A stretch of DNA of 64,000 bases, from positions 393,745-457,744 of the forward strand of contig JBAQEZ010000003.1 of the NCBI GenBank assembly GCA_049287005.1, given 5' to 3'. Within the stretch, counting starts at the first letter, position 1; every line of letters begins with the position of its first letter. The position numbers and the translations under genes are program-made. The stretch is from Candidatus Moraniibacteriota bacterium (GTDB taxonomy: Bacteria > Patescibacteriota > Minisyncoccia > Moranbacterales > UBA1568). This document shows, piece after piece, positions 16,742 to 61,457 of the stretch. The notes under the pieces were generated by a model, which saw only the letters and a list, made by a program, of their open reading frames with translations, had not been told where the DNA came from and did no database searches.

Positions 16742-16898
16742 GACGGATGCAAGATGCAGGATGTCTGATGCAAGATATCGCTCATCGCTTATCCATGATC
16801 TTGTATCCTCATCGAAGAAAAGATGGTTTTACAAAAAAAATTGAAAGGGCTTCGTCCGAATGGATGGAGCCCTTTCAATTTTTTTAGAAACGCAACTT

Positions 16899-21571: not shown

Positions 21572-21929
21572 GTAACTTTCTTATACTAGCAACAAAAGCG
21601 TTTTTAGCAAAAAAGAATCCCGGAAAGATTCTTTTTTATTATCAGTGCGCTTGGCCCTCCTCCGCTCAAGCTTCGGACGGGCAAGCAGGAATCTCCCTCG
21701 ACTAAACCTTTGTCGACACAAAGGTTTGTCTGGGCACCGTAATAGTAGTGATGTGCCTGGCAGGCAGGAATCTGTCACAAGTAAATTTCCTGACGGAAAT
21801 TTCTCGCGACCCCGTCTCGCGGCACTCGCCTTGCCCTTTCGGGCAAACTCGTGCAACGCTCCGACTTTCGATTCCTGACGCACGCCAAGCAGTTGGCGTG
21901 CTCCAAGACAATTTCGCTTTGCTCAATTG

Positions 21930-22002
21930 TGCGCTTGGCAGGAATCGAACCTGCGACCCTCTGGACCGCAACCAGATGCTCTATCCACTGAGCTACAAGC
22001 GC
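21930..22002 (-). tRNA. tRNA-Arg (anticodon GCG; not the usual ACG)
   Basis: Acceptor GCGCTTG/CAAGCGC, perfect anticodon stem TCTGG/CCAGA, loop TTGCGGT. Confidence 0.75.
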
Positions 22003-27968: not shown

Positions 27969-27986
27969 TGAATCTCCCTCTCCGCA
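27969..27986 (+). repeat. direct repeat of the tRNA-Ser(GCT) 3' end (att-like), ~150 nt downstream of the tRNA
   Basis: tgaatctccctctccgca here versus cgaatctctccctctccgca at 27801-27820. Confidence 0.6.
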
Positions 27987-28032
27987 CCAAAAAATACAGG
28001 GCCCCATTTAGGAGTCCTGTATTTTTTGGTGC
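27984..28032. repeat. 17-bp perfect inverted repeat gcaccaaaaaatacagg / cctgtattttttggtgc with a 15-nt loop
   Basis: Seen directly in the sequence. Could act as a bidirectional terminator or a recombination site. Confidence 0.6.
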
Positions 28033-28144
28033 GGCTTTGCCCGTTTTATGGCTCTTGTGATAGAATATATCCAGGAAAGAGACGGGAGGCTCTCTTTTCG
28101 CGTGTTGAATAGTAAACTTTAATTTTTTTTAAGGAGATACGGTT

Positions 28145-39006: not shown

Positions 39007-39131
39007 GTATTGACAGATTGCGTATTTACAGTTGCTGAAGAGGGGTGTAAAATAAAGTCAGGTTCGAGAGGTTTTTTGCAAACTTCCGAATAATTAAAAA
39101 ACAAAAACAAAAACATGAAGGAGGTGAGCAT

Positions 39132-39530
39132 ATGAAAAAAATGTTGAAGGGGTTTACCCTGATTGAACTCTTGATCGTCATTGCCATTATTGGTATCTTG
39201 GCCTCTATCGTATTGGTGAGTTTGAGTAGTGCTCGTACCAAAGCTCAGCAAGCAGCTTTCAAAAGTGAAGTGGCTGGCGCGGTATCCGCGTTGATCACTC
39301 AGTGCGACAGCTCGTTGGACACGACGCTTGGTGTCTTGCCTGTTACTACGAATACCACGAATTGGGGAGCGGCTGTGGTGGCAGGAGAAGATTGCGGAGC
39401 GACCGGCTCCGGAGCTTTTTCAGTCACGGGGATCGCGCCTGCGGCAGATCTCTCCAGTATCGGATGTGTCTCGGCGGGTATTCTCGTGGATGCGGCGGGA
39501 AGCGGTGCCGATTTTACCAGTTGTCCATAA
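39132..39530 (+). CDS. type IV major pilin (prepilin N-terminal cleavage/methylation domain), copy 1
   Basis: KG|[17 protein letters not shown] class-III signal and a C-terminal Cys pair. Strong RBS GAAGGAGG. Confidence 0.85.
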   Translation: MKKMLKGFTLIELLIVIAIIGILASIVLVSLSSARTKAQQAAFKSEVAGAVSALITQCDSSLDTTLGVLPVTTNTTNWGAAVVAGEDCGATGSGAFSVTGIAPAADLSSIGCVSAGILVDAAGSGADFTSCP

Positions 39531-39573
39531 AAAATAAGCAGAGATTAATAAGTTAAAGAAGCAGCATAAATAT

Positions 39574-39963
39574 ATGAAAAAGGTATTGAAGGGTTTTACC
39601 CTCATCGAACTCTTGATCGTTATTGCGATCATTGGTATTTTGGCGTCTATTGTGTTGGTCAGCTTGTCCAGCGCCCGTGATAAGGCGCAAGCAGCGGCTT
39701 TCAAGGCGGAGGTGCAAGCGTCTTTGCCGAGCTTGCTCATCGCTTGTGATACGGACGCGGCAGCTCTGACCGCGGCAGTGGCTGTGGCGAATGCTGCGAG
39801 CGCGAAATATACGCTGCCCGCACCTGCGAGTGTGAGCTGTGGCCCAACGGGTTCAGGCTCGTTCACCATCTCTCCTATCACAGCGGATGTGACGGGTGCT
39901 CCTGCCGCATGCGATACCACGTCTATGACTGCAGCGGGTGTCGTATATCCAGCAGGTTGCTAG
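39574..39963 (+). CDS. type IV major pilin, copy 2 (identical 36-aa N-terminus, divergent C-terminal domain)
   Basis: Same KG|[29 protein letters not shown]-terminus, with a different head domain that has 3 Cys. Confidence 0.85.
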
Positions 39964-41131: not shown

Positions 41132-41644
41132 ATGTCCTATCGGATTCAATCGCCGACAATTCAAAAAAGAAATCTGAAGGGCTTGACGTTGGTCGAGCTG
41201 GTGATCGTGATATCGATTGTCGGCATCTTGGCCTCAATCGTTTCGATTTCATTGGGCGATCAGCGTACGAAAAAAGAGCTCGAAGCGAATGCGCGTGAAT
41301 TTGCGAGCGTTTTGAAGGAGGCTCAAAATTACGCCTTGACCGGCAAGCAGGCAGGCAGCGGAGTGACGTGTCAGTTTGATGTGGTTTGGCCTACTGTGTC
41401 CGCTTATAGAATTGAAGCTCAAGCGAAAAGCGGGGATACTTGCACGGGTGCTTCCACGACTATTGCGGATTATTCTCTCAAGCAGGGGGTGGTGTTCTCA
41501 ACAACGAGCGGTGTGAGTTTTGCGTTGCCATGGGCAGAATCATCAAGCGCGACTATTCAATTTGATAAGTTAGATATCCATCATACTGTTTGTCTGAATG
41601 CCAGCGGCGCTATCACTGATCACGCCGGAAGCGGTTGTCCGTAG
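41132..41644 (+). CDS. minor pilin / pseudopilin (prepilin-type N-terminal domain)
   Basis: KG|LTLVELVIVISIVGILA signal with Glu at +5. Confidence 0.7.
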   Translation: MSYRIQSPTIQKRNLKGLTLVELVIVISIVGILASIVSISLGDQRTKKELEANAREFASVLKEAQNYALTGKQAGSGVTCQFDVVWPTVSAYRIEAQAKSGDTCTGASTTIADYSLKQGVVFSTTSGVSFALPWAESSSATIQFDKLDIHHTVCLNASGAITDHAGSGCP

Positions 41645-55341: not shown

Positions 55342-55493
55342 TTGTTCAACGAAAAAGATTCCAAAAGTTTTTTAGGCCAGTCTCGACGTCTAGGCGGAGA
55401 ACCGCCTATCAAAATTGTTTTGATATGGTTCATCTAAAATTTTTTGGAATCTTTTATTATTCTTCCTTTTAGGACTCGAAGCATTTTTATCAC

Positions 55494-55615
55494 AAGCAAC
55501 CTCCCTGAAGGTCGTTCGTTCGCCCAGCGGCGAACTTCTCTTATGAACTTTTTTCGATCCGTCGAAGACGACGGCACCATGCTCGAAAAAACTTCAACTC
55601 CTCCAGGAAGATTCT
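55494..55615 (+). repeat. intergenic ~122-nt repeat module, copy 1 (hairpin GTTCGCC-CAGC-GGCGAAC plus T6-hairpin-A6 bidirectional terminator-like stem)
   Basis: About 85% identical to 61193..61317. The second stem differs in sequence but stays paired (ccgtcg/cgacgg here versus ccgtcccgcc/ggcgggacgg in copy 2). Confidence 0.8.
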
Positions 55616-55629
55616 TGTGAAAAAATGCT

Positions 55630-56544
55630 TTAGATATCTTTTTCAATAATTTCGGAAGCTTTCCGTGGATCAGTGATCCAGTGAATTGTGGCGCCTATTT
55701 TTTCGAAACGTTTGAGCCACGTGATCTGCCGTTTGGCGTAATGGCGGATTTCAAAATTGAGGCGTTCTTTCATTTCTTCCTCGGTGATTTTTTTCTGGAG
55801 AACGAGAGCGGCGTATTTGTATTCCAACCCGAAGCTCTCCAGTCTTTTCCAGCTGATACTGCTTGCGCGTAATCTTGCTACTTCGGCAAGCATACCTTGC
55901 TTCAGTCGTTTCTCCAGGCGGACCTCGATATTTTTATGCAGCGTCTCTTTCTCTGGATTGAGGGCAATTATCAAGAATGAGTTTTGAATTTTGAATTTTG
56001 AATTTTGAATCGTTGGAATCGTAGGGACCGTTCCAACCGTCTCGCAGATTTCCAGGGCGCGGATGAGGCGGATCTTATTTTTCGCATCGATCGTCTTCGC
56101 GCGTGTCGGATCTTTTTTCTCAAGCATCGCAAAAAGTTTTTCAGCTGAGAGTTTGCCGAGTTTTTCTCGTAATTTCGCATCAGGCTTTACGGCCGGGAAG
56201 GGATTGTCTTCAATGAGCGCCTGCACCCAGAAGCCCGTGCCTCCGCAGAGAATAGGAACTTTTCCGCGCTTCTTTATATCTCGGATGACTTTTTTGGCAT
56301 CCCGAACGAAATGAGTCACGTTGTAGGCGCGTTTCGGGCTGGCGATGTCAAGGAGCCAGTGTTTGGCGAGTTTCTGCTCGGCGCTGGTTACTTTCCCGGT
56401 ACCGATGTCCATGCCGCGATACACTTGTCTGCTATCGGCCGATATGATTTCGCCGTTGTATTTGCGCGCGAGCATAATAGCCAAATCAGACTTCCCGGAA
56501 GCCGTCGGACCGACGATCACGATAATCTTTGCTATTTTCTTCAT
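55630..56544 (-). CDS. miaA: tRNA dimethylallyltransferase MiaA (contains in-frame TTTTGAA heptamer repeats)
   Basis: P-loop GPTASGKS and the DSRQVYRGMDIGT motif. The repeat encodes IQNSKFKIQNS. Confidence 0.85.
   Translation of the reverse strand: MKKIAKIIVIVGPTASGKSDLAIMLARKYNGEIISADSRQVYRGMDIGTGKVTSAEQKLAKHWLLDIASPKRAYNVTHFVRDAKKVIRDIKKRGKVPILCGGTGFWVQALIEDNPFPAVKPDAKLREKLGKLSAEKLFAMLEKKDPTRAKTIDAKNKIRLIRALEICETVGTVPTIPTIQNSKFKIQNSFLIIALNPEKETLHKNIEVRLEKRLKQGMLAEVARLRASSISWKRLESFGLEYKYAALVLQKKITEEEMKERLNFEIRHYAKRQITWLKRFEKIGATIHWITDPRKASEIIEKDI
55982..56009. repeat. (TTTTGAA)4 tandem heptamer inside the miaA coding sequence
   Basis: ttttgaattttgaattttgaattttgaa seen directly. Related TTGAAAA repeats recur at 56575..56630. 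Confidence 0.9.
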
Positions 56545-56626
56545 AATCTAAAATATAGGGGTACGAAACTTCTCATTTTGAAATTGTGGCATTGTTTGAA
56601 AATTGAAAATTAGAAATTGAAAATTT

Positions 56627-59600
56627 TTAGCCAACGGATCCCACGCCATCGAGGCTCCTTATCTGGACGAGGTGTTCTTCGGTAGGGGCGACGGCGAAGG
56701 TGGTATCGATGACCGTGCCCTGGATTTTTACCGCGATTTTTTGCGGACCGGGTGGGATCGTTTTGAGGAGCTGAGAGAGCAGCTCGATGGTTTTTTCCGG
56801 AGCGTCATTTGTGATCGTGATGAGGAGGCGATCGTTCCTCTCTTCGGCAGGCGTTCCGTGCGTAATGCTTTTCGCTCGCGTGGCTTCAGCTCTGGCAAAT
56901 TGGTGGAGCGTATTTGAGGAAATACGATCGACACCCTCGGCAATACATTTGAGCGTCCCGTCTTTTTGTGAGACGCGCGCGTCCACGATCACTACTTCAT
57001 CCTCGATCCACGAGCTGCCAGTGCGTTCGGCTGTTTTTCCGAAGACCAAGAGCTCCACGCGGCCAGTCATATCCTCAAGTCCGATGAAATACATCGTATT
57101 CTGTTTTTTGGTGAGAATTTTTCTGACATCGGTGATGACACCGCCGATGCGCACGCGGCTGTCATCGGGTTGTTTTTCGAGATCGCGGAGCGGGGTGGCA
57201 GTCCTATCGAAATAGGCCTGGTATTCGTTGACGGGATGATCGCTGACATAGAGGCCGAGGAGTTCTTTCTCCCAGCCGAGGGTCATTTTCTTGGTCGCGA
57301 GCAGGGCGGGGGAGAGCTGGATCTTGCTTGTCGGCATAGTCATGCCGCCGAACAGGCTGCTGGCATGGGTATCAGCGATGGACTTGAGATTTCTGCCGTA
57401 TTGCAGGATGACGTCGATGCTTTCCAGGAGTTGATTGCGTTCCCCGAAACCTTCCAAGGCACCCACTTTGATTAGGGCTTCGACGGATTTCTTGTTGAGA
57501 TCTTTGGTCTTGACGCGCTCGACGAAATTTTCGAGAGAGGCATACTTCCCTCCGCGCTTGCGTTCCTCGACGATTTCTTCGGCGACCACGGTGCCGACAT
57601 TTTTGATCGCGTTCAGTCCGAAGCGTACGCGTTCGACCTTGCCCGCCTCGCCGAGACGAGTCGAGGCTGGGTCATAGCCGACGATGACCGCGAACTCCCC
57701 GAAACTTTCATTGATATGGGGTGGCATCACCTGGATACCGAGCTCTTTGGCTTCACGGACTTCGATGGCGATGCGATCAATATTATCCTGGTCCGAGGTG
57801 AGAAGGGCTGCCATGAATTCGGATGGGTAATGGGCTTTGAGATAGGCCGTTTGATAGCCGATGAGGGCATAACAGGCCGCGTGCGAACGGTTGAATCCAT
57901 ATCCGGCGAATGGTTCGATGAAAGAAAAGACTTTTTCAGCGACAGTTTTCCGCACGCCTTTTTCGATACAGCCATCGATGAATTTTTCCCGTTGTTCGAC
58001 GACGAGCTCTTTGATTTTCTTTCCGACTGCTTTACGCAGCACGTCGGCTTCTCCATAACTGAAACCGGCCAGATCGCGGGCAATCTGCATCAGCTGCTCT
58101 TGGTAGACAGCTACGCCGTAAGTGTTTTGGAGAATCGGTTCGAGCGAAGGGTGGAGGTATTCGATTTTTTTCGTGCCGTGTTTGCCGCCGATGAAATCCG
58201 GGATGTAGTCCATCGGCCCCGGACGATACAGCGCTACCATGGCGATGATGTCTTCGAATACGGTCGGTTTCAATTGCTTCAGGTAGCGTTTCATACCGGA
58301 GCTTTCCAGCTGGAAGACGCCGGTCGTATGCGCTTCTTGGAGGAGTTTGAACGTCAACTCATCATCGATGGGAATCTTTTCTATATCGATATCGACGTTT
58401 TTTATTTTTCGAATGATGCGCAGCGTGTCTTGTATAATGGTCAAGTTTTTCAATCCCAAGAAGTCCATCTTGAGTAAGCCGATTTTTTCAACAGCGGCAC
58501 ATTTGGTTGAGTTGGCATACTGTGTCACGACGCCCACGCGGGTGCCGGAAACACGCTGGAGCGGGGTATATTCGGTCACCGGATCCTTGGTAATGACGAC
58601 GCCGCAGGCGTGCATCGAGGCGTGGCGTACGAGTCCCTCGACTTGCGTGGCGGCATCGATGAGCTTCTTCGCGTCGGCGTTTTCCACGTACCATTGTTTG
58701 AACTCCGGTACCTCCGCCAGCGCTTTGGCGATAGAGGTGAACATGGGAATCATCTTGGATGTCTTGTCGCAGATATCATAAGGAAATCCGAGCGCCCGTC
58801 CCACGTCGCGGATGGCGGCCCGGGCAGCCATCGTTCCGAACGTGATGATTTGGGCGACGTGATCGTTGCCGTATTTTTCGCGCACATAATTGAGCACGTT
58901 ATCGCGGCGGTTGTCAGCGAAGTCCATATCGATATCTGGCATCGAAATACGTTCTGGGTTGAGAAACCGTTCGAAGAGCAGATTGTACTCAATCGGGTCG
59001 AGGTCTGTGATACTGGTGAGATAGGCCACGAAACTACCGGCAGCGGATCCGCGGCCGGGACCGACTACGACTCCGTTATTCTTTGCCCAGTTGACGAAAT
59101 CCTGCACGATAAGGAAATATGATGCAAAGCCGGTTTTCTCAATGACGCTCAGTTCATAATCCATGCGGGCACGCTGTTCTTCAGTAATGCTCTTTCCGGT
59201 GTAGCGTTTGGTGAGACCGATCTCGCAGAGTTCGCGCAAAAAAGCATCAGCCGTTTTCCCTTCTGGCAACGGAAATTCGGGGAGATGGTTTTCGCCGAGA
59301 TGAATTTTGAAATCACAAGCATCGGCGATTTTTTGTGTATTCGTAATGGCTTCCGGGAAATCTGCGAAAATCTTGGTCATCTCTGCTTCCGAGCGCATCG
59401 AAAGGTCGAGAGACATCATGCTGGCACGCTCTTTGTCAGTGACCTTCTTGTTATCGCGGATGCAGAGGAGAATGTCTTGGATGGCGGCGTGCTCTCTTTT
59501 GACATAGTGCACATCGGACGCAGCGACGATCGGGATGCCGGTTTCGCGGCTGATTTGGATCAGGCCTTGGTTGGCGATCAGCTGGTTTTCGTATTCGAAA

Positions 59601-60127
59601 TTCGGCCCCAGTTCGAGATAGAAATTCTCCACGCCGAAAATGTCCTGGTATTCCAGGGCAGCCATCTTTGCACGTTCGTGGTTGCCGTAGATTATTTCCG
59701 AAGGCACTTCGCCCTGGAGCGATCCGGACAAGGCGATGAGTCCTTCATGATATTGGCGGAGGAGTTTCTTGTCCGCGCGAGCCTTGTAATAGAAACCATC
59801 GAGTTGAGCGACAGAAATGAGTTTCATGAGATTCTTGTAGCCGGTCTCGTTTTTGACCAAGAGCACCAGTTGATGACGGCGGCGATCCTCAGCCGTGTTG
59901 TTTTTGCTCAAGTGATTTTCGCAGATATGCATTTCCGCTCCGAAAATCGGTTTGATACTGAGGTCTTTGGCCTTGCTGTAGAATTCTACGGCTCCGTAGA
60001 GCGCTGACGTGTCGGTGAGGGCGAGAGAGGTCATGCCGAATTCTTTGGCTTGCGCCAAAAGCTCCTCAAGCTTCGGGAGGGCGGTGAGGAGGCTGTAGTG
60101 CGAGTGAACGTGGAGATGAGTGAACAT
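56627..60127 (-). CDS. dnaE: DNA polymerase III subunit alpha DnaE
   Basis: PHP domain (HLHVHSHYSLL), the polymerase core, and an OB domain. About 1166 aa. Confidence 0.9.
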   Translation of the reverse strand: MFTHLHVHSHYSLLTALPKLEELLAQAKEFGMTSLALTDTSALYGAVEFYSKAKDLSIKPIFGAEMHICENHLSKNNTAEDRRRHQLVLLVKNETGYKNLMKLISVAQLDGFYYKARADKKLLRQYHEGLIALSGSLQGEVPSEIIYGNHERAKMAALEYQDIFGVENFYLELGPNFEYENQLIANQGLIQISRETGIPIVAASDVHYVKREHAAIQDILLCIRDNKKVTDKERASMMSLDLSMRSEAEMTKIFADFPEAITNTQKIADACDFKIHLGENHLPEFPLPEGKTADAFLRELCEIGLTKRYTGKSITEEQRARMDYELSVIEKTGFASYFLIVQDFVNWAKNNGVVVGPGRGSAAGSFVAYLTSITDLDPIEYNLLFERFLNPERISMPDIDMDFADNRRDNVLNYVREKYGNDHVAQIITFGTMAARAAIRDVGRALGFPYDICDKTSKMIPMFTSIAKALAEVPEFKQWYVENADAKKLIDAATQVEGLVRHASMHACGVVITKDPVTEYTPLQRVSGTRVGVVTQYANSTKCAAVEKIGLLKMDFLGLKNLTIIQDTLRIIRKIKNVDIDIEKIPIDDELTFKLLQEAHTTGVFQLESSGMKRYLKQLKPTVFEDIIAMVALYRPGPMDYIPDFIGGKHGTKKIEYLHPSLEPILQNTYGVAVYQEQLMQIARDLAGFSYGEADVLRKAVGKKIKELVVEQREKFIDGCIEKGVRKTVAEKVFSFIEPFAGYGFNRSHAACYALIGYQTAYLKAHYPSEFMAALLTSDQDNIDRIAIEVREAKELGIQVMPPHINESFGEFAVIVGYDPASTRLGEAGKVERVRFGLNAIKNVGTVVAEEIVEERKRGGKYASLENFVERVKTKDLNKKSVEALIKVGALEGFGERNQLLESIDVILQYGRNLKSIADTHASSLFGGMTMPTSKIQLSPALLATKKMTLGWEKELLGLYVSDHPVNEYQAYFDRTATPLRDLEKQPDDSRVRIGGVITDVRKILTKKQNTMYFIGLEDMTGRVELLVFGKTAERTGSSWIEDEVVIVDARVSQKDGTLKCIAEGVDRISSNTLHQFARAEATRAKSITHGTPAEERNDRLLITITNDAPEKTIELLSQLLKTIPPGPQKIAVKIQGTVIDTTFAVAPTEEHLVQIRSLDGVGSVG

Positions 60128-60461
60128 GGTATTCCGTATCGCGTATTCTGTATGGTGTATCAAGTTTGCTTGATACTTGCTACTTTATACGTGATACTTT
60201 TAAAATAAAAAACGCCAATCAAAATGAAGGGCGAAATATATAAATATAAGAATATATAGACATAGAATTGAGTTCTCTCATAGCCCGGATAACTCCAAGG
60301 GTTTTGCAGAGAAGTTGATAGTGCTTTCAGTATACTCGGTAGCGCAACTTTGAACAAGCGTGTCGGGAGGAATTGCGTATATATTTTTTTTCATGCAAAT
60401 TTATCCTTTTATAGAGCCTTAAATTAGTTATAATCATACATGGATGTGATATACTTCGAAC

Positions 60462-61169
60462 ATGCAAGAAATAACCTTTGAACAAGAGAAGGAGCGGAGC
60501 CTTTTGGGGCACGCTTTTGTTATTGGTGTCGATGAGGCGGGGAGAGGACCGCTCGCCGGGCCGGTCGTAGCGGCAGCGGTGTGCTACAAGGATCCGAGCT
60601 TTCGGATTCCAGAGGGGCTGGGAAAAGAATTCGCGCTCATCCGTGATTCCAAAAAACTCTCCGAAAAACAGCGTGAAAAGATGTTTGATTTCATCCACGA
60701 ACACTTTCACGTCGGCGTCGGCATCGTGAATGCGGAGACGATCGATCGGGTGAATATTCTGCAGGCGACGTTTCTGGCGATGAAAAGTGCCGTATCGCAA
60801 CTTATGAAAAAGCTGCCGCGTGAAGCAGAGGAGCGGGGTCATTTGCTCATTGATGGTAATCAGTTGCTCCCGAGTTATTCTGCTTCGCAAGAAGCGATCA
60901 TCTCAGGAGATAACATCGTGAAATCTATTGCCGCGGCATCTATCGTGGCCAAGGTCACGCGTGACCGCATGATGCTAGAGTATGACACCTTGTATCCCGG
61001 TTACGGTTTCACGGCGCATAAAGGCTACGGGACGCAGGTCCACATGGATGCTTTGCGGCATCTCGGGCCGTGTCCGATGCATCGGATGTCATTCAAGCCC
61101 GTGCTTTTGGCATTGCCAGAAAACGTCAATAAACGATTCGCCAATGTCTTGAAGCCGAAGAAGAGGTAA
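60462..61169 (+). CDS. rnhB: ribonuclease HII
   Basis: GVDEAGRGPLAGPVV, the DSK motif, and the catalytic Asp/Glu pattern of the RNase HII family. Confidence 0.85.
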   Translation: MQEITFEQEKERSLLGHAFVIGVDEAGRGPLAGPVVAAAVCYKDPSFRIPEGLGKEFALIRDSKKLSEKQREKMFDFIHEHFHVGVGIVNAETIDRVNILQATFLAMKSAVSQLMKKLPREAEERGHLLIDGNQLLPSYSASQEAIISGDNIVKSIAAASIVAKVTRDRMMLEYDTLYPGYGFTAHKGYGTQVHMDALRHLGPCPMHRMSFKPVLLALPENVNKRFANVLKPKKR

Positions 61170-61192
61170 ATATTTTTTTGTATCTGACAGCT

Positions 61193-61317
61193 AACAACCT
61201 CCCCGGAGGCCGTTCGTTCGCCCAGCGGCGAACTTCTCTTATGAACTTTTTTTGATCCGTCCCGCCATGGCGGGACGGCACCGTGCTCAAAAAAACTTCA
61301 ACTCCTCCGGAAAGATT
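61193..61317 (+). repeat. intergenic ~122-nt repeat module, copy 2
   Basis: See copy 1. Lies downstream of rnhB in the same orientation. Confidence 0.8.
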
Positions 61318-61457
61318 TTAGCTGCAGATACGCACTCCGCTAATACTGTGCTCGGGCATTTGGGGGAGTCTTGGCAGTACACCTTTGTAGAGGCGCGGTG
61401 CCTTGTCAAAAGTGAAAAGGGATGTTACAGTAAGAACGTTAATAATTTTTTACCGTT

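Follow-up and report, generated by a model that had tools for sequence, protein, structure and literature searches.

The present analysis concerns a window of 64,000 nucleotides from Candidatus Moraniibacteriota (contig JBAQEZ010000003.1, positions 393,745 to 457,744), in which two copies of an intergenic element, named here element A and element B, bracket the genes rnhB, dnaE and miaA. Both copies belong to a family of structured RNA elements without a match in Rfam, present in a subclade of Candidatus Moraniibacteriota. The family is characterized by a conserved fold, a strand bias, restriction to one locus, positional orthology and a lack of coding potential. Tentatively, we regard the element as co-transcribed with dnaE and miaA and processed by RNase III, either as a cis-acting element or as the precursor of a stable RNA.

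A first-pass annotation of this DNA described a repeated unit of about 122 nt. Both copies are found where it placed them, with cores (55497-55613 and 61195-61317) that are 86-87% identical over 123 nt and share an exactly common block of 41 nt, where 0 matches are expected by chance. This unit is too small, as it represents only the core of an element of 152 nt, whose flanking inverted repeats extend the closing helix P1. The layout of A is AAGCATTTTTaTCACAAG / core / CTTGTGAAAAAATGCTT and that of B is GTATCTGaCAGCTAA / core / TTAGCTGCAGATAC, with the two flanks of each copy being inverted repeats of each other. The sequence just outside the shared core differs between A and B, yet in each of them it extends P1, to a length of 34 bp in A and of 31 bp in B. 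The helix encloses a three-way junction with two arms. The long arm P2 is built of a lower stem of U6-7 and A6-7, a bulge of 8 nt (GCAYGGUG) and a tip hairpin that varies. The short arm P3 corresponds to the hairpin GTTCGCC-cagc-GGCGAAC, which was correctly recognized in both copies at the first pass. The folding z-scores of the window copies range from -5.5 to -8.0, and the plus strand adopts the same fold 15 kcal/mol more weakly than the minus strand, since several of the minus-strand pairs are G-U. Element A shares its first base with the end of the miaA stop codon and occupies much of the convergent miaA/gatB spacer. Element B is antisense to rnhB and rpmF, its two neighbours.

Over 49 shared pairs, the two copies differ by 8 double (compensatory) changes and by 2 changes to G-U; no pair is broken, and every difference falling in a stem is compensated. 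The hairpin now assigned to the tip of P2 was described as having completely different arms that remain complementary. The complementarity holds, but five pairs (ccgtc/gacgg) are identical in both copies, and the real differences are one flipped pair (G-C to C-G) and three extra pairs at the tip of B. Similarly, the T-run and A-run reported on the two sides of this stem are present, but they pair with each other as the lower part of the long arm. The sequences taken for direct repeats at the outer ends form helix P1 with each other, and they do covary, through a change from U-A to C-G together with G-U wobbles.

The family was traced through the miaA neighbourhood of 80 metagenome loci and the contigs encoding the closest MiaA homologues, using covariance models built from A and B first and then from the matches. 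This search yielded at least 12 further full-length copies and several cut by contig ends, with E values from 1e-10 to 1e-35. Several of the related contigs originate from the Hainich groundwater wells. In total, 14 full copies are known from the window and nine loci of relatives (given L numbers below), all of them between rpmF and gatB. Each copy is about 150-190 nt long, with a nearly perfect P1 of 24-41 pairs in 13 of 13 copies, and every relative carrying the element has a MiaA at least 65% identical to that of the window. Four or five different intergenic sites are occupied, all within the rpmF-rnhB-dnaE-miaA-gatB locus (see the table). The copies between dnaE and miaA lie 36-174 nt upstream of miaA, and the rnhB/dnaE copy of L009 lies 280 nt upstream of dnaE. 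Most copies are located within the dnaE-miaA unit or at its ends: ahead of dnaE, in the dnaE/miaA spacer, or directly behind the miaA stop codon. Of the 14 full copies, 12 have the orientation of these two genes. In other relatives these sites are empty (11-86 nt) or hold either a terminator of the ordinary kind or a long palindrome unrelated to the element. The ends of six short-read contigs fall within the element (L086 1-76, L089 1-71, L090 1-50 and L102-L104 1-39), as would be expected from several near-identical copies per genome or from graph breaks at the inverted repeat, and these contigs were not used for copy number.

Outside this locus, the searches were negative. Neither sensitive BLAST nor a covariance-model scan with filters off detected a third copy in the window, its other 56 kb included, and no copy occurs in about 65 kb flanking the element-bearing loci, which brings the copy-free DNA outside the locus in such genomes to about 120 kb, in 102 kb around clpC of relatives, or in 80 more distant miaA loci. 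Within the DNA sampled, the family therefore has few copies, all confined to a single 8-kb locus, and is no dispersed repeat. No solo copies of the conserved P1 block were found outside the elements. Exact-word scans with the conserved core blocks gave no match in public collections of genome, metagenome or viral contigs, which means that the family is either uncommon or diverged beyond the reach of exact words; a MiaA-based locus search of genome contigs retrieved only three distant loci.

The fold is supported by covariation, computed on 10-13 homologues. In a model-guided alignment of 10 distinct sequences, 95% of the cells are paired and both sides change in 44 of 49 pairs, while 0 of 500 shuffles were as good and slid partners were paired in 42-53%. 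MAFFT followed by RNAalifold, a procedure independent of the covariance model, recovers the same four helices with compensatory changes in 34 of 45 pairs, the outer arms included. P2, the P2 tip and P3 all covary, the last of them in 6 of its 7 pairs. The proposal that selection acts on structure beyond a recent duplication is thus upheld. Of the identities suggested in the first-pass annotation, a small structured RNA family is the one that stands. Two copies alone, without covariation, would have pointed to a simple segmental duplication, but homologues in at least nine other contigs covary in all four helices. At the level of sequence, the inner part of P1, AGAAUCUUCC / GGAAGGUUGCU, is the best-conserved block in subfamilies 1 and 3, and nearly all copies retain the bulge consensus GCAYGG(U). 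The joining strand J2/3 is only loosely conserved, and subfamily 3 (L019, L085, L088, L099) has G-C pairs in place of the U/A runs.

Three measurements concern the strand. First, the pairs of the family include 29 G-U against 8 A-C, and this excess favours the miaA-sense strand. Second, 12 of 13 copies fold more stably on the modelled strand than on the complementary one, the difference reaching 22 kcal/mol. Third, the covariance model gives the opposite strand 11-14 bits and the modelled strand 140-147 bits. These results favour the strand carrying dnaE and miaA as the functional one.

The copies are also conserved by position. Orthologues of A at the same site retain 66-73% DNA identity, similar to the flanking genes (62-75%), and for intergenic DNA at this divergence such conservation implies purifying selection. 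At the same site, L090 has outer arms identical to those of A, although its MiaA is only 75% identical; the arms of the positional orthologue in L009 are 74% identical to those of A, in comparison with 39% for copy B. The outer arm of B is 83% identical to its positional orthologue in L015 and matches the inverted copy in L090. The element is not coding: stops interrupt all six frames in B and in the site-A copies of L009 and L090, and B, L009 and L015 have ACG in place of the bulge AUG. The translation of the element's only open frame has no match among 5.8 billion proteins. A small protein gene is rejected, since no frame survives across the homologues and the bulge AUG is often ACG.

The search against Rfam 15 returned no match at the gathering threshold in the window (best chance matches at most 16 bits, E > 2), none even at E up to 10, and nothing at E ≤ 1 in five loci of relatives. 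The genomes of candidate-phyla-radiation bacteria are tiny and leave very little space between genes, and a non-coding structure of 150-190 nt at gene-like conservation is therefore unlikely to be junk. To our knowledge, almost nothing is known about the non-coding RNAs of these bacteria, and the literature search found nothing relevant on structured RNAs or miniature inverted-repeat transposable elements (MITEs) in them.

Table. Features of elements A and B, adjacent genes and occupied sites in relatives (positions in the window; MFE, minimum free energy)
Feature	Position	Strand	Description
Element A	55479-55630	-	whole 152-nt structure; MFE -74.7 kcal/mol, z = -7.1; covariance-model score 146-166 bits
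A, outer 5′ arm of P1	55614-55630	-	AAGCAUUUUU + UCACAAG; site-specific; partner 55479-55496
A, inner 5′ strand of P1	55596-55613	-	AAUCUUCCUGGAGGaGUU; sequence-conserved; partner 55498-55516 via conserved U-G wobbles
A, long arm P2	55545-55595	-	lower stem GAA.UUUUUUCGA / UCGAAAAAA.UUC, bulge and tip hairpin
A, P2 bulge	55575-55582	-	conserved 8 nt, GCAUGGUG
A, P2 tip hairpin	55559-55574	-	CCGUCG-ucuu-CGACGG; variable; second hairpin of the first-pass annotation
A, joining strand J2/3 of the three-way junction	55536-55544	-	AUAAGAGAA, 9 nt
A, short arm P3	55518-55535	-	GUUCGCC-gcug-GGCGAAC, 7 bp; first hairpin of the first-pass annotation
A, outer 3′ arm of P1	55479-55496	-	CUUGUGA-u-AAAAAUGCUU
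Element B	61180-61331	-	whole 152-nt structure in the rnhB/rpmF spacer; MFE -85.3 kcal/mol, z = -8.0; covariance-model score 140-171 bits
B, 5′ strand of P1	61300-61331	-	outer GUAUCUG+CAGCUAA, inner conserved AAUCUUUCCGGAGGaGUU; partner 61180-61214
B, arm P2	61243-61299	-	bulge GCACGGUG (61279-61286); 9-bp tip hairpin (61257-61278)
B, arm P3	61216-61233	-	GUUCGCC-gcug-GGCGAAC
miaA	55630-56544	-	open reading frame and Pfam label
dnaE	56627-60163	-	open reading frame and Pfam label; same strand as both elements
rnhB	60462-61169	+	open reading frame and Pfam label
Site miaA/gatB			window A, L008/L009, L090
Site rpmF/rnhB			window B, L015/L016, L019, L028; inverted copy in L090
Site dnaE/miaA			L085, L086, L088, L089, L099, L102-104; two copies in L018
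Site rnhB/dnaE			L009

From position and fold we infer transcription, cleavage by RNase III and a downstream role. The element would be transcribed together with the dnaE-miaA genes: the first base of the site-A copies belongs to the miaA stop codon, and others lie 5′ of miaA or dnaE. RNase III would then bind and cut the long double-stranded P1; the helix length that the enzyme needs (about two turns or more, at least 20 near-continuous bp) is exceeded in all copies measured, and the outer sequence varies among them. Such cutting would set the ends and the stability of the mRNA and would release a capped three-way-junction RNA of about 100-120 nt, in which the conserved bulge and the wobble-containing mid-helix could form a protein-binding surface. 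The gene of RNase III, rnc, belongs to the same locus and lies three genes away.

Several observations weigh against RNase III processing of a dnaE-miaA transcript. B and its orthologues in L015, L019 and L028 are antisense to both neighbours, rnhB and rpmF, and no sigma-70-like promoter is predicted or conserved on the element strand upstream of the site-B copies; the RNA made at site B is most likely the complement. Two copies are inverted, one at site B (L090) and one in L018 (L018a), which a strictly strand-specific cis function would not easily tolerate. The element is dispensable, since the close relatives L007, L011, L013 and L100 lack it across the whole locus. Restriction to the locus is judged from limited data, with the surroundings of clpC as the one other genomic region sampled in relatives. 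Finally, a plain RNase III site needs no conserved three-way junction, and the mechanism covers only part of the anatomy.

Alternatively, the copies could be independently transcribed genes of trans-acting small RNAs, for example protein-sequestering or ribonucleoprotein RNAs, whose 5′ and 3′ ends pair as the closing helix and whose synteny with dnaE and miaA is merely kept. This we consider unlikely, although it ranks first among the alternatives. The covarying junction, the single-stranded GCAYGG bulge and the helix with wobbles and a bulge are typical of protein-binding stable RNAs, and the site-B copies, antisense to both neighbours, would need a promoter of their own. The number of one to two paralogues per genome and the two old subfamilies in L009 and L018 also resemble small-RNA paralogues. 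However, no copy has a conserved promoter upstream or a terminator downstream, and the site-A copies, which begin at the miaA stop codon, could have a promoter of their own only within the gene. The Rfam families without a match include 6S, Y RNA and SRP RNA, no complementary target was found for the bulge (matches to its complement AACCATGC are as frequent as expected by chance and do not fall on start codons nearby), and several close relatives lack the element.

More doubtful is the explanation that the copies are MITE-like or Correia/ERIC-like elements, mobile but non-autonomous, which hop locally between intergenic sites. A transposase encoded elsewhere would then recognize the inner P1 strands as terminal inverted repeats, and the fold would be a by-product of the repeats or would serve a single-stranded DNA transposition intermediate. 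Occupied and empty sites both occur among otherwise syntenic relatives, at four to five intergenic positions, the empty ones being as short as 11-66 nt; orientation flips occur (B of L090, L018a), and the cores cluster by subfamily or genome and not by site. The size of about 150 nt and the plan of an inverted repeat plus core are like those of Correia elements (PMC2649163), and one orientation in 12 of 14 copies is seen in single-strand transposons as well. Against this, the target site is not duplicated: the flanks are UAUCUA / CGAGUC in A and GAGUGC / AAAAAA in B, without a direct repeat. The picture for terminal inverted repeats is mixed: the inner P1 block is conserved in subfamilies 1 and 3, and the true termini, the outer 7-17 bp of the arms, differ by site (39% identity of A and B). 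Spread of the REP/MITE-like kind suggested at the first pass is a weak reading, as there are only two copies in 64 kb with filters off and none outside the 8-kb locus in about 220 kb of related DNA, and the neighbourhood gene tables of the window and the relatives contain no transposase. Positional orthologues persist at gene-like conservation where MiaA is only 70-75% identical, the internal arms P2, P2 tip and P3, for which terminal repeats have no need, all covary, and the bias of G-U over A-C points to RNA.

In the evolution of the copies, the outer arms track position and the cores track genome or subfamily. The cores of A and B are 92% identical, and each is only 57-79% identical to full-length cores at the same site elsewhere. 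L009 and L018 each carry two old subfamilies, one copy apiece, and at site B, L090 combines the arms of B with an inverted core. The simplest reading is that the copies are old paralogues, vertically inherited and diverging by compensatory change, with occasional local duplication and clean loss. Inversion would proceed via recombination between the element's own arms, and gene conversion would have homogenised the A and B cores in the window lineage, which explains similar cores between unrelated outer arms. Insertion into a pre-existing palindrome was rejected, as the empty B sites of L011 and L013 contain no palindrome and the outer arms are alignable and covarying; old paralogues with core gene conversion are preferred for this reason.

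Two bolder proposals, taken together, have an outside chance, lower than that of a mobile element. The family may be a lineage-specific stable RNA working with the accompanying replication and tRNA-modification genes, for example a junction RNA released by RNase III that binds a protein via the GCAYGG bulge. Or its conserved core may be a new kind of selfish cassette spreading without a transposase, by gene conversion between long-hairpin “landing pads” that already existed. If either were true, it would represent a previously undescribed class of bacterial RNA or DNA element.

A terminator cassette ending the gatB/miaA and rnhB transcripts is improbable. Both window copies lie just 3′ of gene ends, the element is the sole structure in the convergent miaA/gatB spacer of L009 and L090, and a scan flagged the plus-strand hairpin GTTCGCC-cagc-GGCGAAC followed by TTCTCTTATG as terminator-like, with a weak tail. 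The bidirectional terminator of the first-pass annotation is nevertheless contradicted by how the runs are arranged: whichever strand is read, the GC-rich tip hairpin comes after the T-run and before the A-run, the runs pair mutually, and in subfamily 3 they become G-C pairs. The U-rich tail after P3 is not conserved, as J2/3 varies, no U-tract follows P1 on either strand, and copies also occur inside the operon, 5′ of dnaE and between dnaE and miaA. The ordinary terminators of the window differ as well. The bidirectional ones at 16829-16890 and 27978-28038, the latter about 160 nt downstream of tRNA-Ser, are long hairpins with extended stems, an A-run 5′ and a T-run 3′, and the covariance model matches them weakly, in P1 only and on both strands. 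A plain segmental duplication or chance palindrome with unselected structure, to which the mere two window copies and the 92% core identity of a possibly recent copy might point, is scarcely credible given that homologues in at least nine other contigs keep the fold by compensatory changes in all four helices and orthologous copies are conserved like coding genes.

The element was also compared with known classes of structured elements. REP/BIME units, which are GC-rich palindromes of 20-40 nt present in hundreds of copies and associated with a RAYT transposase, do not fit a branched, low-copy unit of 152 nt with no transposase in the gene tables. In contrast to 6S RNA, a rod-like fold whose large central bubble is unpaired on both strands, the 5′ strand of P1 enters P2 with 0-1 unpaired nt, and the unpaired or branched sequence is all on the 3′ side. 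Integron attC sites carry R″/R′ core sites (RYYYAAC … GTTRRRY) at their ends, with an integrase and a cassette array nearby. The ends found here are AAGCAUUUUU… / …AAAAAUGCUU in A and GUAUCUG… / …CAGAUAC in B, next to housekeeping genes and no integrase. Judged by eye, the signature sequences of the hammerhead, K-turn, group II domain 5, SRP helix 8, 5S rRNA and retron are lacking. A replication origin or terminus was discarded, as the GC skew is uniformly positive across the window.

The gene map and the Pfam labels were taken from a 99.99%-identical NCBI contig, JBAQNY010000003.1 (GCA_049304235.1). The gene order is gatB(+), element A, miaA(-), dnaE(-), rnhB(+), element B, rpmF(+), nusB and rnc, with gatB, miaA and rnhB placed as in the first-pass annotation, and the synteny rnc-nusB-rpmF-rnhB-dnaE-miaA-gatB is kept in relatives. 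MiaA carries the name Candidatus Moraniibacteriota, which makes the host a member of the candidate phyla radiation. Separate from element A, the plus-strand hairpin TAGGCGG-agaa-CCGCCTA followed by tcaaaattgttttg (55391-55408) is likely the terminator of gatB. The miaA/gatB spacer seems always to contain some long hairpin. Examples are the unrelated long perfect palindromes at this site in two element-less loci, L013 (10267-10409, TCTAATATCCCATAATTTCGCG/GC/CGCGAAATTATGGGATATTAGA) and L007 (10880-10930, AGTTACGTATGGAGTTAC/GTAACTCCATACGTAACT). Directly 3′ of the miaA stop codon, L010, L011, L014, L019 and L007 share a recurrent palindromic motif absent from the window, ACGTAATTNNTTACGTAA (core TTACGTAA), perhaps a site of protein binding. 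Relatives that are otherwise syntenic here also have variable accessory genes inserted in the locus, and the elements adjoin these insertions. They comprise, in L009 (4897-6235, dnaE/miaA), a small open reading frame (ORF) and a 292-aa ORF that, judged by eye only, presumably resembles the glutamate racemase MurI, a 264-aa ORF in L018 (275-1069), and a 238-aa ORF in L015 (5389-6105, rnhB/dnaE).

Two other repeats were noticed in the window. A 48-nt stretch with the inverted repeat GGGATCG…CGATCCC occurs at 2666-2713 and 21766-21813 (85% identity), 50-115 nt from the tRNA-Arg genes 2765-2839 and 21929-22002, both on the minus strand, and it is probably a shared tRNA flank or a terminator left by tRNA gene duplication. 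A direct repeat of 133 nt is present in three copies of 60-78% identity (39130-39262, 39572-39704 and 41160-41292). These are probably paralogous gene segments, because the region encodes type IV pilus and pilin-like proteins in relatives.

The significance of the family lies in its fixed genomic address beside the genes of DNA polymerase III alpha, RNase HII, MiaA and RNase III, and in unusually clean comparative support. A long perfect helix with a conserved junction leads to a testable prediction of RNase III processing, and the copies offer an example of element evolution by core gene conversion, inversion through the element's own arms and clean loss. Were it only a stability or processing hairpin, the family would be a modest addition to the transcribed hairpin elements; it would be weightier if the junction RNA has a partner or the core spreads by conversion.

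Among known systems, the processing stems of RNase III, such as those of rRNA precursors and the intercistronic signals of phage T7 early mRNA, have a long helix of more than 20 bp, in which the sequence is free and the pairing is kept. Such stems either surround rRNA or form plain hairpins interrupted by an internal loop, whereas the helix of the present element encloses a conserved junction of about 90 nt. Orphan Rfam motifs share with it an intergenic, covarying multi-stem fold, a narrow taxonomy and a recurring gene neighbourhood, but here the closing helix is unusually long, and the copies lie 5′ of, within and 3′ of an operon and not in a fixed 5′ untranslated region. Bidirectional terminators are similar in occupying a convergent-gene spacer with a GC hairpin flanked by A- and T-runs, but the run order of the element is reversed (T first), and its runs form a helix and are not conserved in the family. 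The Correia repeat enclosed elements (CREE/NEMIS) of Neisseria are intergenic units of about 105-157 bp with inverted repeats around a core, whose presence or absence varies among related genomes (PMC2649163). Their transcribed hairpin binds RNase III and is cut or protected, which alters mRNA stability (PMC2649163). CREE number from more than 100 to 250 dispersed copies with conserved 26-bp terminal repeats and target duplication (PMC2649163), whereas the present element has one or two copies at one locus, site-specific terminal arms, no duplication and a strand-biased, covarying three-way-junction core, so it does not belong to them. With the inverted repeats around a core and the patchy presence among relatives as the likeness, which extends similarly to ERIC and other transcribed hairpin repeats, CREE would be the closest analogue in how the element may work.

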